Shown: positions 1,659-7,091 of the stretch, piece by piece
Numbering within the stretch: position 1 is the first letter of the stretch
Layout of the letters: each line of letters begins with the position of its first letter
Source of the DNA: a virus
Taxonomy: Duplodnaviria > Heunggongvirae > Uroviricota > Caudoviricetes
Strand: one strand, 5' to 3'
DNA length: 7,567 nt
IMG/VR virus record: IMGVR_UViG_2690316028_000015
Program-made: the position numbers and the translations under genes
The notes under the pieces: generated by a model
Database searches by the model: none
Told to the model about the DNA's origin: nothing
What the model saw: only the letters and a program-made list of their open reading frames with translations

Positions 1659-4130
1659 TTAAGAATCAGCCTGACTCGGGATCAGTTTTTGCCAGATAAC
1701 TGAAACGTATTTTGCCTGGTAACGGGCGTCATCAAGTGCATTATGGCGCTCACCTTCGAATGGAATAGCCGTTCTGGCATCGAAGTCTATGGCTTTCCCC
1801 AGCTCAACGATTGTGCGTACATCGCGATCGTTGTAGTAACGCCACGGGCAGGGGATCCCCTGCCGTTCGTATGAACGGCGCAAAATCGTGTTGTCGAAGT
1901 TGGCTCCATTTCCCCAAACCTGAACAAAAAATTCACCGGAGTTTTCGTCGATAAATTCCCGCAATTGTAACAGTGCATCATCTAACGGGATTTCATCGGT
2001 CATAATGGCAGATTGCGCTTCGCGTGATTGCTTAAGCCACCATTTAATGGTGTTCCGATCAATGACTCCGCCAGCAGTTTCCAGATCGATAGTCTTACTA
2101 AATTCCGGTCCCATATCTCCGGTTTGCGGATCGAAAAATATTGCACCTATTGAGATGATCGGGGCATCAGGATTTTTTCCCATGGTTTCAAGGTCGATCA
2201 TTAGATGGTCACACGTCCTGCTGGTGGATGTGATTTCGTGATGACCGTTCACCTTAATTGAGTGATCTGCCGTCTCGCCAGTTTCATTATCGCTATTGTG
2301 ATGCTGATTGCCGCCAGTGTTCTCCTTGTGTGGATGTTCAGCGCCTTCCATTTCCTCCGGATCATCTTCCTGAACTTCAACCTGATATTCTTCATCGAAT
2401 GTTTCTTGATATGTTGCGTCGCCCATCACCGCGCCACAATCAGGGCAGTTGCCGCCGCCGGTCTGACCGCAGGCGGTGCAGACTTTTTCCACTTCCTGTT
2501 GCGCCACTGGTTCAGGCTGTTTCGTTTCTGGCTCGTTTTGTAACGCATTTGTGCTGTTTTGTTCCGCTTTTTGGTAGTTCCGTTCCGATTCATGCTGGTT
2601 CTGGTTCACAGAATCGCGGGTCTGGATCCCCTTAACCCATTTCGGATCATTCGGGTCACTAATCCCTTCAACAAATTCACCACGTGATGCAGCAAGCAAC
2701 TTATCGGCGTCAGGCTGGCTGATATTGGCTGCCTGCATAATTTTGTTTACTTCGTCAGCGGTAACTTTTATCGGCTCTGGTTGTTCTGAATCTTCAGCGG
2801 TATCTACATTTTGCGGTAAGCCCGTGTATGTGCCATTTTTTCGGGCAAAATATTCTTCTTTTGTGATTTCAGTGGCGCCAGCAGCCAGTGCCTTATCCAG
2901 ACCAGAAAGTTTGTTTGCGCGACCGTATTTTTCTCCGTCCTTATCTGCGAAGAGGAAATAGAACGGCCCCTCACGCTCTACAGATGGTTCAGCTTCCGGC
3001 GCGGTTTCATTTTTTGGGATATCAGATACCTCAGTTTCCACTGCATCAGTTTGTGTTTCTGATGACTGGAGAACATCAACAGTGCCCAGGTCTGTTTCTT
3101 CATTCTCAAACACGCCCTTTGTCGTCAGGTATTCGCAGATATATTTGTTCAGTGCTATGGGATCTTTGTGAATGTCGATCGGACGCTCACGGACAAGGCC
3201 AAAAATAGTCTGGCGGTCGTAGCGAAGGGCATCAGGCTGTTTGCGCATTGATGCCGAGATACGCTTCCAGTCTTCGCGGTCGTTGTCGATAACTTCTTTT
3301 TTTGCCCAGCGATGGATGCTGCCGTCAATGTTTCCGGCATCCACATCACTAGGCCAGAGAGCGTAGGCCAGTTCGTCATCCAGTGTTTTCCATGTCTGCT
3401 TGTATTCGCGATGAATGGCAGCAATGACCGGGCTGATTTTTCCTGTTGAATTTTCAGTGTACTGTTGATTGGCTCTGGCGCGGGCGAGATCAACAACAGA
3501 CGTGTATTTTCCGGTTTCCTTGCGTTCACCTTCGCGACGTTTTTTCCAGATGCGCATCTCTGCCTGAATTTCGGGCCATTTAGCACCAGGAATACATTTA
3601 TGCTTAACCCACCCAATGGCGTGCAACTTAAGCTCCGGATACATGGCGTTAACTTCTGGCATTTTCATCAACGCTTCAACGATATGTCCGTCGAATGTTG
3701 CCATGTCTTCCTGCAACAATTCCTGTGCGCTAATAACCATATCAACGGTGATGTTTTCACATGTGTCGAACTTAACCATGACAGCGTTCTGTACTTCAGG
3801 GGCCAGCTTGTCAAAAGTGACGTTCATCGGATCGGATTCAGTCTCAACCGGGACAAAAGAAGCAGACTCCTCATCCCAGCGGTTTTCCTGCATATATTCA
3901 GCATCCCATGAATCGAGGGCAGGGCGGGGTATGCCAGGTTTATCCTCGCAGACAATAAATTTATAAGCGCAGTCCTGAGCAGCCGGATAATGTTCCAGGA
4001 ACTGCCAGTGAAATTTTGCTCGAGCACGGCGTTCGTCGCCAGCTTCAATGGCTGTGGCTACAGCCACAGCGCCTTCTTCCCTTGTTGCCAGTTCGTCAGG
4101 AATAGCGGCGCAAATAAAGACTTTACTCAT
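1659..4130 (-). CDS. ydfE: Large prophage exonuclease: N-terminal region of unknown function, Cys4 zinc ribbon, acidic linker, C-terminal DEDDh (DnaQ/RNase T-like) 3'-5' exonuclease domain; counterpart of the K-12 ydfE pseudogene
   Basis: 823-aa ORF with GAGG 10 nt upstream of the ATG at 4128-4130. C-terminal motifs MIDLET (nt 2184-2201), VWGNGANFDNT and HNALDD (nt 1728-1745) are read directly. CTACGQTGGGNCPDCG lies at nt 2436-2480. Confidence 0.85.
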   Translation of the reverse strand: MSKVFICAAIPDELATREEGAVAVATAIEAGDERRARAKFHWQFLEHYPAAQDCAYKFIVCEDKPGIPRPALDSWDAEYMQENRWDEESASFVPVETESDPMNVTFDKLAPEVQNAVMVKFDTCENITVDMVISAQELLQEDMATFDGHIVEALMKMPEVNAMYPELKLHAIGWVKHKCIPGAKWPEIQAEMRIWKKRREGERKETGKYTSVVDLARARANQQYTENSTGKISPVIAAIHREYKQTWKTLDDELAYALWPSDVDAGNIDGSIHRWAKKEVIDNDREDWKRISASMRKQPDALRYDRQTIFGLVRERPIDIHKDPIALNKYICEYLTTKGVFENEETDLGTVDVLQSSETQTDAVETEVSDIPKNETAPEAEPSVEREGPFYFLFADKDGEKYGRANKLSGLDKALAAGATEITKEEYFARKNGTYTGLPQNVDTAEDSEQPEPIKVTADEVNKIMQAANISQPDADKLLAASRGEFVEGISDPNDPKWVKGIQTRDSVNQNQHESERNYQKAEQNSTNALQNEPETKQPEPVAQQEVEKVCTACGQTGGGNCPDCGAVMGDATYQETFDEEYQVEVQEDDPEEMEGAEHPHKENTGGNQHHNSDNETGETADHSIKVNGHHEITSTSRTCDHLMIDLETMGKNPDAPIISIGAIFFDPQTGDMGPEFSKTIDLETAGGVIDRNTIKWWLKQSREAQSAIMTDEIPLDDALLQLREFIDENSGEFFVQVWGNGANFDNTILRRSYERQGIPCPWRYYNDRDVRTIVELGKAIDFDARTAIPFEGERHNALDDARYQAKYVSVIWQKLIPSQADS
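1662..2213 (-). other. DEDDh exonuclease domain within the 823-aa protein (about residues 640-823)
   Basis: The three exonuclease motifs occur in the expected order and spacing: D-x-E in MIDLET, Asp in NFDNT, H-x4-D in HNALDD. Confidence 0.7.
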
Positions 4131-4223
4131 TTTGTTTTAACCTCATGACAGATTTAAGGATGAACAAATCCCTGCCATTGCTGGCATATAAGAATGAAAC
4201 CGGATATTTATTACGGAACTGTT

Positions 4224-4415
4224 TTAAAGACCTGCCGGGATTTCGATATTATCCTGGTGAATAACTTTATCGACCGGGTAACAGTTACCGGGAATTTTCT
4301 GTTCGGTTGCTGCAGTCATACACTCCTGCATTGTCCTGTGAACACTGACTGCAATATCAACTGGCTCTCCGGAAACAAGAAAAACTGTCAGAACAAGCGC
4401 AAATGCTGAATTCAT
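4224..4415 (-). CDS. ydfD: Small hydrophobic-N-terminus protein YdfD (reported as a lysis-inducing protein of Qin)
   Basis: 63-aa product MNSAFALVLTVFLVSGEPVD... from the internal ATG at 4413-4415. AAGGA lies 8 nt upstream and the ATG overlaps the dicB stop as ATGA. The longer 81-aa ORF call is rejected because its extra N-terminus is the dicB 3' end in another frame. Confidence 0.8.
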   Translation of the reverse strand: MNSAFALVLTVFLVSGEPVDIAVSVHRTMQECMTAATEQKIPGNCYPVDKVIHQDNIEIPAGL

Positions 4416-4600
4416 TGTGCACATCCTTTTGGCATCAGACGTAAACGAGCCAGCATTGAAACAATGCATATTTTATTTAATAGCTCCCGTTCTTGTTTTC
4501 TCTTGTTAATGGCATCTTCAGTAAATACAGGGTTACTGATAGTGACACCAATTTCAAAACAACCTTCAGACGTATTAACGTTTGGTAATAACGTTTTCAT
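4412..4600 (-). CDS. dicB: Cell division inhibitor DicB (small protein, MinC-dependent division block)
   Basis: 62-aa product MKTLLPNVNTSEGCFEIGV...MPKGCAQ from the ATG at 4598-4600, with GAGGA 7 nt upstream. The sequence matches my memory of K-12 DicB. The 97-aa ORF call has no RBS at its start. Confidence 0.85.
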   Translation of the reverse strand: MKTLLPNVNTSEGCFEIGVTISNPVFTEDAINKRKQERELLNKICIVSMLARLRLMPKGCAQ

Positions 4601-4769
4601 TATCGCGTCCTCAACAATGAATTTTGTGATGCAGTGCCTGGTGCCTCCAGGTGACGTTAACCAGTTAACAATTAACGCCGGATACAGAGAATCCACCCAT
4701 AACACTGTTTTTGGTTTTAACTGTTCCGCGTGCGCTTAGCCGCATTCACCGCATCACAAAATTCACTTT

Positions 4770-4827
4770 AAAAACGGCGGCAGAGCAGTCACGGAGTAAA
4801 ACTGATACCGCCAAACGTCACCAGAAA
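4770..4827 (-). ncRNA. dicF: DicF small regulatory RNA (Hfq-dependent, targets ftsZ and other mRNAs), including its 3' stem and U-tail
   Basis: The reverse complement of 4770-4827 reads TTTCTGGTGACGTTTGGCGGTATCAGTTTTACTCCGTGACTGCTCTGCCGCCGTTTTT. This matches the DicF sequence as I recall it, ends in a GC-rich stem plus T-run, and lies about 170 nt upstream of dicB. Confidence 0.75.
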
Positions 4828-5102
4828 ATTGATAACAGAGGGCGTTGCAGCGGGGTTGTCACTTAAGCGTATGGTCAACCTGACAACTCGGTGTCCTCAA
4901 CGGGGAAGGAATAACCCCGCCATACTTACCGCCGCGCCATTTCGCGGGTTGCCACAACCGGAAGCGCACGGTCGAATTAAATTTAACGACACCGTACAGT
5001 GAGACGAACTTCGCCGTGCGCTTTCGTGTTGTGTGCCTGCTTTTAACCACGTCAGGCGAGGTGGTATCCTTCTTATTCCGAATAACCAAGAAGGAAATCT
5101 AT

Positions 5103-5303
5103 ATGACTAAAGAAGAATTTGTCTCTTATATTTTTGATAAAACGGTTGAAATGTATGCCGCTACTTACGGGTCCTGTAATCCTCTGAATAAACCAGAGGG
5201 GAAAGATGATTTCGACAAAATTTACCGCTTCTTGGAGGACCGCTATATCAAAAGGTTAGAGGACGCAGGGATCAAATCCCCAGTGAAGTCACCATTGTCC
5301 TGA
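5103..5303 (+). CDS. Hypothetical small acidic protein (66 aa), antisense to the dicB operon; candidate moron
   Basis: ATG at 5103 with AAGGA 7 nt upstream. The product is a balanced charged sequence (MTKEEFVSYIFDKTVEMYAATYGS...), and the ORF is noticeably more AT-rich than the GC-rich region to its left. Its 3' end overlaps the convergent 5272-5637 ORF by 32 nt. Confidence 0.4.
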   Translation: MTKEEFVSYIFDKTVEMYAATYGSCNPLNKPEGKDDFDKIYRFLEDRYIKRLEDAGIKSPVKSPLS

Positions 5304-5637
5304 GAACTTGCAGGACGTCATGATCGTAACTTCCATCCAAACCGCGACGGCAAATTGCTTCTCGTATTACCGGAAGCAGTTCGCTGGAAATCTCGGTGCA
5401 TATTTCACCTGCTAATACGCCTGGCTCAAGTGAGAATATTGGTGAACTTACGGTCTTGGTCTCTACAGTTTCAGAGTCAGTGCCAACATTATAAAGCTCA
5501 ACGAAAGCGGTCTTGATTTTCCGGGCCAGATCTTTTGCTGGCTCGCTTGCAATATCTTTCCCGATTTCTCGCAGCACAGAATGCAATGTATGAGCTGCTG
5601 TTTTCTGTACATCAGACGGTAAATCTTTAAATTCCAT
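5272..5637 (-). CDS. Hypothetical acidic protein (121 aa) in the ydfB/ydfC position
   Basis: ATG at 5635-5637 is preceded by GAGG at 6 nt. An upstream in-frame ATG at 5647-5649 overlaps the ydfA stop as TGATG, so the start is ambiguous (121 or 125 aa). No recognisable motif. Confidence 0.6.
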   Translation of the reverse strand: MEFKDLPSDVQKTAAHTLHSVLREIGKDIASEPAKDLARKIKTAFVELYNVGTDSETVETKTVSSPIFSLEPGVLAGEICTEISSELLPVIREAICRRGLDGSYDHDVLQVLRTMVTSLGI

Positions 5638-5648
5638 CGTCAGCCTCA

Positions 5649-5801
5649 TCAGTCAGTGTTTCTGGCTAACCAGCAACGCGCGCCAGATTCGGTTTTAAAC
5701 GTTTTGCTTTTGGTATATGTCATCGCGGTGAACGTACCGTCCTGGTTGGGGAACACGCCACATACCAGAGATTCGCTGTTGCCAAGATCGATAGTATCCA
5801 T
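5649..5801 (-). CDS. ydfA: Small protein YdfA-like (50 aa), first gene of the leftward operon
   Basis: Internal ATG at 5799-5801 with GAGG 6 nt upstream. The 102-aa extension would begin upstream of the operator/promoter and is rejected. The product MDTIDLGNSESLVCGVFPNQDGTFTAMTYTK... has the size and position of K-12 YdfA. Confidence 0.65.
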   Translation of the reverse strand: MDTIDLGNSESLVCGVFPNQDGTFTAMTYTKSKTFKTESGARCWLARNTD

Positions 5802-5877
5802 GCTGACCTCATTTCCCCTTAACGCCGGGGTAGCGGAACTGTTTGCTGAGAACACCGTGCGGTGTGTTGATGGAGGT

Positions 5878-5930
5878 AATTTAGTTTTCTCATTATTTTT
5901 CGTCAAGGTTTTTTGATGAGAAAACTCAAG
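5878..5930 (-). promoter_or_regulatory. Leftward early promoter with two operator copies (OL/PL-like, PdicB equivalent)
   Basis: On the minus strand: -35 TTGACG (plus coordinates 5901-5906), 17-nt spacer, -10 TAAATT (5878-5883). Operator TGAGAAAACTCA at 5917-5928 and a one-mismatch copy TTAGTTTTCTCA at 5881-5892 overlap the -10/spacer. Confidence 0.55.
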
Positions 5931-5993
5931 TATTGGCGCAAGATAAAGCCAATACATTGAAATGTAAGGCTTTAAAATTTTGTGAAGGGATGA

Positions 5994-6401
5994 TTATTGA
6001 TGCTTGTTGCGTTTGCGAGCCTCTAATAGCTCGGTGAACAGGCGATTAAAATTCTCAACGCGGGCGCGGAGTTCGCTGAGTTGTGCTTGTTGCTCTGATT
6101 TAGGAAGTGCGCGATACAAACGCAGCATCTCTAACTCATCTTCCGATAAGTCTAAGGCACTATCGAGTGAAACAGGGGGAGCTGGTGTTTTGTCCTCGTC
6201 GCCAAACAGTATCCAGGTTGGTGAACATTGCAATACCTCGGCGAGGCGATGCAAATTTTGCCCACGCGGGGCTGTATGGTCACTTTCCCATAATGAAATT
6301 GATGAGCCAGATACGCCAGCAGCTTTGCTTAAACCGTTTTGACTTAAGCCTACCTGCTTACGTCTTTCTCTAATGCGTTGACCTAAAGTTTTCTCGTTCA
6401 T
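5994..6401 (-). CDS. dicA: DicA-family HTH (XRE/cI-like) repressor of the leftward operon
   Basis: 135-aa product from the ATG at 6399-6401, with an N-terminal HTH (LGQRIRERRKQVGLSQNGLSKAAGVSGSSISLWE) and the segment SPTWILFGDEDK that I recall from K-12 DicA. It lies between the two operator clusters. The 152-aa call adds 17 residues that run into the operator region. Confidence 0.85.
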   Translation of the reverse strand: MNEKTLGQRIRERRKQVGLSQNGLSKAAGVSGSSISLWESDHTAPRGQNLHRLAEVLQCSPTWILFGDEDKTPAPPVSLDSALDLSEDELEMLRLYRALPKSEQQAQLSELRARVENFNRLFTELLEARKRNKHQ

Positions 6402-6478
6402 ATTTAGATATCTTAATAACCCTTGACTTGAGATTCCTTGAGTGATTAGCATTGAGAAAACTCAATATTGGAGGTGCG
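6402..6478. promoter_or_regulatory. Divergent promoter/operator region between the repressor and the cro-like gene (OR-like)
   Basis: Perfect 14-bp palindrome TTGAGAAAACTCAA at 6452-6465 plus TTGAG-containing repeats at 6428 and 6438. Candidate rightward -35 TTGACT at 6423-6428, and GGAGGTG RBS at 6470-6476 for dicC. Confidence 0.55.
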
Positions 6479-6706
6479 ATGTTTAAATCAGACGTAATTA
6501 ATTTTTACGGTACGAAAGCCAAAGTAGCGAAAGCTGCTGGCGTTGACCCATCTGCTGTTTCTCAATGGCAAGAGCTGGTTCCTGAAGGTCGCGCGATGCG
6601 TCTACAGGAGGCATCTGGCGGCGAGCTTCTGTATGATCCCAAGGTTTATGACGAATATCGTAAGACGAAGCGGGCGGGGCGGTTGAACAATGAAAATCAC
6701 TCCTGA
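6479..6706 (+). CDS. dicC: Cro-like small HTH regulator (DicC/YdaS-type)
   Basis: 75-aa product from the ATG at 6479, with a strong GGAGGTG RBS. It is transcribed divergently from the repressor. The TTG start at 6452 in the ORF track lies inside the operator palindrome and is rejected. Confidence 0.8.
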   Translation: MFKSDVINFYGTKAKVAKAAGVDPSAVSQWQELVPEGRAMRLQEASGGELLYDPKVYDEYRKTKRAGRLNNENHS

Positions 6707-7091
6707 ACAGGCTCGTGAGGCTCTGGATGCCTGGATATGTCGACCAGGAATGACACAGGAGCAGGCGACGATATTAATCACTGAAGCATTCTGGGCTTTG
6801 AAAGAGCGCCCGAACATCGATGTTCAGCGTGTCACAGATGAAGGTGGCGCGGTTGATCAGCGAGCGCTTGGCGTTAATCGAGTGAAGATATTCGAACGCT
6901 GGAAGGCTATCGACACTAGGGATAAGCGTGAAAAGTTCACGGCGCTAGTGCCTGCAATTATGGAGGCTACAGCGAGATCCATTCTGGGTAAAAAACATCA
7001 TGAGCCCGTCAAAACTCCGCGAAAAATGGGACGAACTGGTCATCCGCTTGGGACGTTCACCTGTACAGCGTTGTGTGAATCATATTTCTGA
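6690..7091 (+). CDS. Hypothetical early-right protein in the cII/YdaT position (133 aa)
   Basis: ATG at 6690 overlaps the dicC 3' end by 17 nt. The position immediately after the cro-like gene is as in Rac ydaS-ydaT. No motif I can name. Confidence 0.6.
   Translation: MKITPEQAREALDAWICRPGMTQEQATILITEAFWALKERPNIDVQRVTDEGGAVDQRALGVNRVKIFERWKAIDTRDKREKFTALVPAIMEATARSILGKKHHEPVKTPRKMGRTGHPLGTFTCTALCESYF

Follow-up and report, generated by a model that had tools for sequence, protein, structure and literature searches.

Why does a short open reading frame run against the leftward early operon of a Qin-like prophage, and does it encode a protein with a task of its own? The frame lies at positions 5103-5303 on the plus strand of the window, by which we mean the whole 7,567-nucleotide stretch of DNA that was analysed. 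According to the sequence and the list of its open reading frames, it specifies 66 amino acids from an ATG at 5103 to a TGA at 5301-5303, and a Shine-Dalgarno sequence (AAGGA, 5091-5095, plus strand) stands 7 nt before the start codon. A preliminary description had drawn attention to this frame, to its ribosome-binding site and to a 32-nt overlap with a convergent gene, and we found each of these again in the sequence. The small gene sits in the well-studied dicBF region, in BL21(DE3) and in about 7% of complete E. coli genomes, yet it is nameless. As published, the dicBF operon has the layout ydfABC-dicF-dicB-ydfD only (PMC5069750), and literature searches by accession, peptide and phage name returned nothing on the small gene.

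The window represents the left arm of a lambdoid prophage of the Qin/mEp460 type, integrated beside rspB. Its minus strand carries, in order, the integrase gene (20-1315), the excisionase gene, a gene for an 823-aa exonuclease, ydfD (DUF1482), dicB and the DicF RNA, and beyond DicF a 121-aa gene (5272-5637), ydfA (DUF1391) and the gene of a DicA-like repressor; next come cro and ydaT, both on the plus strand. The earlier assignment of this region to the dicB operon is borne out by Rfam, which located DicF in the downstream part of the leftward operon (4775-4826, minus strand; RF00039, 72.5 bits, E = 5.7e-15), and by Pfam, which recognized DicB, YdfD (DUF1482) and YdfA (DUF1391). The Rfam scan of the window gave two matches in total, both within 4568-4826 and none at the small gene. 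The second is a sub-threshold match to STnc100 at 4568-4777 on the minus strand (34.5 bits against a gathering threshold of 47, E = 1e-4), which takes in the leader between dicF and dicB as well as the first part of dicB. At the other end of the window, the ydaT-like frame (6690-7091, plus strand) has 133 aa as against 173 aa in BL21(DE3) (L010, 6599-7120), and homology to the dicC-ydfX-ydfW region of K-12 stops at 6970. These alignments suggest that ydaT of the window is rearranged or truncated, as it is in K-12.

Comparative evidence for a coding gene

The small protein is already present in RefSeq, where PGAP lists an identical sequence as a hypothetical protein (WP_000159335.1). In both strain CP53 and BL21(DE3), where its locus tag is B21_RS08100, PGAP annotates the small gene as the sole plus-strand CDS of the leftward operon, in line with the earlier statement that it is the only candidate on that strand. 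The label of orphan, by contrast, has to be dropped. Besides the RefSeq entry, a small family exists in PHROGs, phrog_34441, which aligns with residues 1-66 of the protein over a profile of 66 positions (E = 1.5e-50) and has no functional annotation. Searching 5.8 billion proteins, we obtained full-length relatives with 89, 88, 73 (Cedecea), 57 and 54% identity, all of them 65-66 aa long, and a profile search added one distant member of 73 aa. Over 1.84 billion representatives, profile searching recovered only about ten true relatives and no remote link for the small protein.

Throughout this family the reading frame is maintained: homologs down to approximately 40-54% identity keep an open frame of 65-73 aa. 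In a codon alignment of six loci, dN/dS of the small frame ranged from 0.08 to 0.28 with synonymous sites near saturation, and it was likewise low in codons 1-47, which no other open reading frame overlaps. Out of the six possible frames, only that of the small gene is open in all six loci. The mean pairwise difference was 0.234, 0.156 and 0.435 at codon positions 1, 2 and 3, the third being the most variable, and pN/pS, computed for five frames, was 0.28 in the frame of the gene, 0.43 in frame -2 and 1.0-1.5 in the remaining three (+2, +3, -1). The single indel in the alignment is in frame, and a Shine-Dalgarno sequence of the GGA(A/G) type is kept upstream of the gene across all aligned loci.

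Of 61 additional loci, taken from species genomes and from viral contigs, 57 have an intact frame of 64-66 aa with a start codon. Among the four disrupted copies, one has lost its start codon, and in the other three an insertion interrupts the frame after codon 16. The three interrupted copies come from viral contigs and are broken at the same nucleotide, near window position 5150 (L076 3001-3070, L077 3001-3050 and L078 1957-2006). The inserted ends, which we presume to be IS1 termini from their resemblance to these, occur in two opposite orientations, so that at least two independent insertions appear to have hit one AT-rich site.

The same comparisons bear on the possibility that the frame arose by chance, or merely mirrors opposite-strand signals of the untranslated leader upstream of dicF. 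The frame is indeed short, belongs to no family with a known function and lies in a long untranslated region of the leftward transcript, and K-12 manages without it. A chance frame would nevertheless be hard to reconcile with dN/dS values of 0.1-0.28, with a pN/pS that is lowest in this one of the five frames computed, with a frame that stays open at 54% identity and tolerates an in-frame indel while the other five are closed, or with 57 intact copies in 61 loci. We consider this explanation very improbable, and on the comparative data it is effectively refuted. The preliminary description had proposed to discard the gene if homologous regions carried frameshifts or stops, if they lacked codon-level conservation, or if K-12 contained the segment as a known non-coding leader. 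Frameshifts are absent apart from the rare insertion-sequence hits, conservation at the codon level is clear and the segment is missing from K-12. The frame conservation and the low dN/dS show, at the level of sequence comparison, that a genuine coding gene lies at 5103-5303, as had been supposed, and that purifying selection acts on its protein.

The segment is found in 398 of 5,426 complete E. coli genomes, nearly always with at least 99% identity. BL21(DE3) is a carrier, and mEp460_ev081 is the one deposited phage that has it. Two copies, 100% and 91% identical to the E. coli type (L019 and L021), are filed under MAGs of Veillonella parvula and Geobacteraceae; binning contamination is the most likely source of these assignments, rather than true hosts.

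A two-gene cassette in place of ydfB and ydfC

Alignment to K-12 with blastn delimited the segment to which the small gene belongs. Window positions 3364-5044 match K-12 Qin with 98.3% identity and positions 5658-5872 match ydfA of K-12 with 91%, while positions 5045-5657 found no K-12 counterpart. Homology therefore breaks at 5044/5045 and 5657/5658, and at the corresponding place K-12 has 510 bp with ydfB and ydfC. The segment at 5045-5657 holds the small gene together with the convergent 121-aa gene, hereafter the partner gene. It resembles the ydfB-ydfC segment in its identical position in the operon, between ydfA and the dicF leader, and differs from it in that ydfB and ydfC are two co-directional small genes with no annotated antisense gene and with unrelated sequences. 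YdfB and YdfC were also compared with both cassette proteins as possible relatives and proved unrelated to either. When the window is compared with prophages that share only the N-terminal domain of the partner, the variable unit is narrower and spans approximately 5045-5490. Taken together, the alignments indicate that the small gene is part of a two-gene replacement cassette, mobile between enterobacterial prophages.

The small gene had been suggested to be an inserted moron, and the alignment supports this as far as its absence from K-12 is concerned; what was exchanged, however, is the two-gene segment 5045-5657 and not a self-contained insertion of 5103-5303. The other features expected of a moron are also present in part. 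The position is filled differently in a related phage, although the replacement of ydfB-ydfC includes the facing gene. Base composition is deviant, with 40.8% GC in the small frame against 54.4% in the untranslated stretch upstream (4830-5044) and 46.2% in the window, as had been noticed before; this low value is not unique to the small gene, since dicB-ydfD has 40.1%. A terminator of its own was not found: the region 4700-6500 contains no recognizable intrinsic terminator, and the one hairpin near the stop codon (GTCCTG-N8-CAGGAC, 5297-5316, plus strand), which spans it, has no U-tract and occurs in part of the family only. Close relatives retain it, Cedecea has an altered form, and L005, L006 and L015 do without it; a search across the loci for a universal hairpin after the stop codon gave none.

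Linkage to the 3' half of the partner gene

The partner gene (5272-5637, minus strand; phrog_33007) encodes 121 aa, or 125 aa from an alternative ATG at 5649. AF2 predicts two helical hairpins in the protein, one N-terminal (aa 1-53) and one C-terminal (aa 83-121), with a disordered linker between them; at a pLDDT of 63.6, the confidence of this model is too low for a fold search. The N-terminal domain is itself constrained (dN/dS 0.08-0.37), and its relatives in Stx phages are hypothetical proteins throughout. The partner has no significant match in Pfam, NCBIfam or PADLOC, and its maximum 19-residue hydropathy of 1.18 indicates no transmembrane segment.

The 3' ends of the two genes overlap at 5272-5303. 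The overlap measures exactly 32 nt in 56 of the 58 loci with a frame of 64-66 aa; other lengths are 56 nt in L005 and L006 and 35 nt in L015. We found the small gene in four other prophage backgrounds, always convergent to and overlapping with a gene of 121-137 aa just downstream of the repressor gene. The integrases of these backgrounds are of different arm-binding types, and their repressors are S24-type or HTH-only. Despite their differing N-terminal parts, the facing proteins have a common C-terminal domain ('...LLPVIREAICRRGLDGSYDHDVLQVLRTMVTSLG' versus '...ALPLVVKAINQNGYRGDYICNIALVISLMATSLG'). Cedecea has the unit across the immunity region, flanked by cro and a CP76 gene; there, the C-terminal domain of the partner is kept on the opposite strand while the N-terminal domain is gone. 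The most distant member (L015) faces a 63-aa frame that aligns weakly with the same C-terminal domain. The small gene is missing, in turn, beside those relatives of the partner that match it in the N-terminal 49 residues only and end in a different C-terminus, the break falling near window position 5490.

In every independent context that we found, the small gene thus faces a partner-type C-terminal domain beside the immunity region, with the weak similarity of L015 as the loosest case. Because the pair co-occurs in all these contexts, the conserved unit is the small gene together with the C-terminal domain of its partner. About four independent lineages stand behind this linkage, which could also be purely physical, through the overlap of the two genes. 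As an antisense gene beside the immunity region, the small gene is not unusual; what sets it apart is the consistent conservation of its convergent, overlapping partnership.

Three further arrangements deserve mention. In Cedecea, the C-terminal domain of the partner has no stop, and a 109-aa frame continues antisense through the whole small gene (L003, 3568-3897, minus strand). In L011 (4239-4469, minus strand) and L012 (4269-4514, minus strand), convergent frames of 76 and 81 aa overlap the 3' end of the first early-left gene, which has only the N-terminal 49 residues in common with the partner; the frame in L011 was missed by the gene finder. We considered these two facing frames as a second conserved family, and they are related neither to each other (E = 3.4) nor to the 66-aa family.

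Comparison with known families and accessory genes

The small protein is mildly acidic, with a mass of 7.7 kDa, a pI of 5.3 and a GRAVY of -0.68. Its maximum 19-residue hydropathy is 0.31, which leaves no hydrophobic or transmembrane segment. AF2 modelled it as a two-helix hairpin with helices at residues 3-22 and 31-54 (pLDDT 82.8), and we predict a soluble protein of this fold. A Foldseek search of the model against PDB and BFVD gave no match with E < 1, which is unsurprising for so generic a helical hairpin. Pfam, NCBIfam and PADLOC yielded no family for the small protein beyond sub-threshold noise. None of the roles suggested earlier (toxin, antitoxin, anti-defence or exclusion factor) is backed by a family or fold match in these searches. 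The defence profiles of PADLOC-DB recovered none for the protein of the window, and the match of one homolog to PD-T4-3 was non-significant (E = 0.034).

We weighed four known classes for the gene pair and rejected each of them. Against a type II toxin-antitoxin system, neither protein has a recognizable toxin or antitoxin domain and the genes are convergent rather than arranged in a co-directional operon. A type I system is contradicted by the lack of a transmembrane segment in either protein and by the presence of conserved soluble proteins on both strands. Membership in the SieB family has no support from Pfam or PHROG matches, the likeness being positional only, and no significant PADLOC-DB match identifies a known anti-phage defence protein.

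The positional likeness is nevertheless informative. Like sieB of lambda and P22 and STMMW_20121 of ST64B, the small gene lies on the opposite strand in a repressor-controlled early-left operon, near the repressor gene, and it shares with such morons a promoter-like element, deviant GC and presence or absence among related prophages. It differs from SieB in sequence and fold, SieB being a membrane protein of about 190 aa and the small protein a predicted soluble hairpin of 66 aa. It also differs from the sieB-type morons in that no terminator was found and that it moves with the 3' half of the facing gene. The low GC, the good ribosome-binding site and a conserved promoter-like element argue for accessory, 'moron'-type behaviour. 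We regard the small gene as a new, uncharacterised example of the small prophage accessory genes that lie antisense to early operons.

A gene of this kind may have no functional tie to its partner at all. It could act on the host or on incoming phages, through exclusion, anti-defence or modulation of host physiology, and be linked to the partner only by overlap and co-inheritance. Low GC, an own ribosome-binding site and a promoter-like element fit such independence, as does the patchy distribution among E. coli genomes (398 of 5,426). There is also a counterpart in lambda, whose ral-N interval holds a plus-strand frame open for 184 aa that we take to be sieB. Prophage genes that run antisense to a lytic operon are typically accessory and expressed in the lysogen, and a place beside the immunity region is a classic site for them (PMC7067206); the dicBF operon itself is described as giving protection against phages through DicB (PMC6832061). 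The linkage data speak for a closer tie: the C-terminal domain of the partner extends about 120 nt past the 32-nt overlap and yet is kept everywhere, Cedecea included. A helical hairpin of 66 aa is, moreover, small for an autonomous defence function, and neither PADLOC nor the Pfam and NCBIfam searches showed homology to an immunity, antitoxin or defence family. On balance we find a role unconnected with the partner rather unlikely.

A candidate promoter and a proposed role in the lysogen

Upstream of the small gene we identified a candidate extended -10 element, TGGTATCCT (5062-5070, plus strand), in which TGnTAnCCT is invariant in six loci; the counterpart in L015 is TGTTATTCT. In sigma-70 promoters with an extended -10 element, the positions that matter are the TG and then T, A and the final T, and these are the invariant ones here. 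The distance from the end of the -10 element to the ATG is 31-33 nt, and 38 nt in Cedecea, and the expected transcription start is near 5077. The element is contained in a block (5030-5073) that is 93% identical among diverged cassettes, compared with 79-81% in the leader. A promoter scan at its threshold did not list the site at 5062-5070. The -35-like hexamer TTAACC (5043-5048, plus strand) lies 16 nt from TATCCT (5065-5070) and is poorly conserved, reading TTCACC, TTCTCC or GTGCCG elsewhere, and the K-12 breakpoint at 5044/5045 falls inside it. These positions and the spacer agree with the weak promoter proposed earlier; the word weak does less than justice to a -10 element with a conserved extended TG. 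The conservation pattern supports, as an argument from consensus, a putative promoter of the extended -10 type belonging to the small gene itself.

Two other motifs surround this element. An inverted repeat, ACCAC-N10-GTGGT (5046-5065), overlaps the promoter spacer; repeats of the CCAC...GTGG type are also present in L005-L008, and L003 has one with a G.U-type change. Such a repeat could serve as an operator or as an RNA stem. A possible hairpin (5067-5095, plus strand; z -2.6) would join UCCUUCUU (5067-5074), which as RNA reads CCUUCUU and is able to pair with the Shine-Dalgarno region, to AAGAAGGA (5088-5095). In L005 the corresponding stem is longer, with different bases (z -3.7). A hairpin that sequesters the Shine-Dalgarno sequence conflicts with a transcription start near 5077, since the stem would then not be transcribed; we also tested it for a strand preference and found none that is consistent.

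The reading that we tentatively favour, with a probability not far short of even, is that of an accessory gene, expressed in the lysogen, whose protein, antisense RNA or both counteract or regulate the early gene facing it. It would be transcribed from its own extended -10 promoter, against the repressor-controlled leftward operon; with a promoter that opposes a repressed operon, it could be produced in the lysogen while the operon is silent. The small protein would then bind or neutralise the C-terminal helical-hairpin domain of the partner, and, in addition or instead, the mRNA, being complementary to the 3' end of the partner gene, would lower partner expression, as OOP RNA does for cII in lambda. 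By either route the partner, with a presumed function in the early lytic phase, would be kept harmless or silent until induction. In its layout the pair recalls an induced effector opposite an antidote or immunity gene that is expressed constitutively. We favour a functional tie because the small gene was never seen without the C-terminal domain of its partner. An anonymous hypothetical protein is thereby given a concrete hypothesis, which is cheaply testable in a standard laboratory strain.

Conserved DNA at the overlapping 3' ends

The overlap of the two genes is part of a block, at approximately 5240-5345, that is 96-100% identical among cassettes otherwise 80-85% identical. The block reaches about 40 nt past the dual-coded 32 nt and includes the hairpin at 5297-5316. 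Within it, synonymous change in partner codons 83-121 is almost absent when close relatives are compared (pS 0-0.10). Such conservation could reflect a constraint at the RNA level or recent recombination.

Another reading is that RNA or transcription, rather than the protein, is what mainly matters. Rightward transcription from 5062-5070 would collide with leftward transcripts or be antisense to them, the protein would be secondary, and the outcome would be less leakage, in lysogens, from the partner gene and from the toxic dicF and dicB downstream. This would suit the convergent geometry with overlapping 3' ends at all loci, and a transcript for which no terminator was found may run far into the leftward operon. 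The extension of the 96-100% block beyond the dual-coded nucleotides, with its low partner pS, points the same way, and the dicBF operon is toxic and normally repressed (PMC5069750). Yet the protein evidently matters, given strong purifying selection on its amino acids at saturated synonymous divergence. The cassette also occurs in prophages without a downstream dicF or dicB, and the conserved block rests on close relatives, in which recent recombination could explain it. We therefore judge a role mainly at the level of RNA or transcription to be unlikely.

The precedent for such regulation is OOP of lambda, OOP-type RNAs being known to overlap the 3' end of an early gene (PMC7067206). As with OOP and cII, a convergent transcript of the small gene would be able to pair with the 3'-terminal 32-56 nt of an early gene, and the Cedecea unit, directly after cro, occupies the position that cII has in lambda. 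OOP, on the other hand, is a non-coding RNA of 77 nt with a terminator, whereas the small gene is protein-coding and selected and has no recognizable terminator.

What the locus adds depends on which of these roles applies. Were the small gene to control the gene facing it or the leakage of dicF and dicB, it would be a new element that silences toxic early functions in cryptic prophages. An effect on other phages would instead mark it as a new, small factor for exclusion or anti-defence. Failing either, it is simply a further small accessory gene of a prophage.

Analogy with a convergent effector and its antidote

A more specific form of the favoured reading, in which the small gene counteracts its partner, is suggested by analogy only. 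In operons of pore-forming colicins, an SOS-induced toxin gene is followed at its 3' end by a convergent, constitutively expressed immunity gene. At our locus, too, a small gene with a putative promoter of its own stands opposite an inducible gene whose C-terminal domain is variable, and that domain travels with the small gene as a unit. The colicin immunity proteins are membrane-bound, unlike the small protein, the setting is a plasmid and not a prophage early operon, and there is no homology. By this analogy, the pair would be a convergent effector/immunity module that shuffles between prophages, of a kind not recognized before in lambdoid early operons, a proposal that we put forward as a long shot. 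The C-terminal hairpin of the partner would serve as an inducible effector domain, able to be joined to a common N-terminal adaptor; the small gene would be a constitutively expressed antidote, acting doubly as a binding protein and as an antisense RNA.
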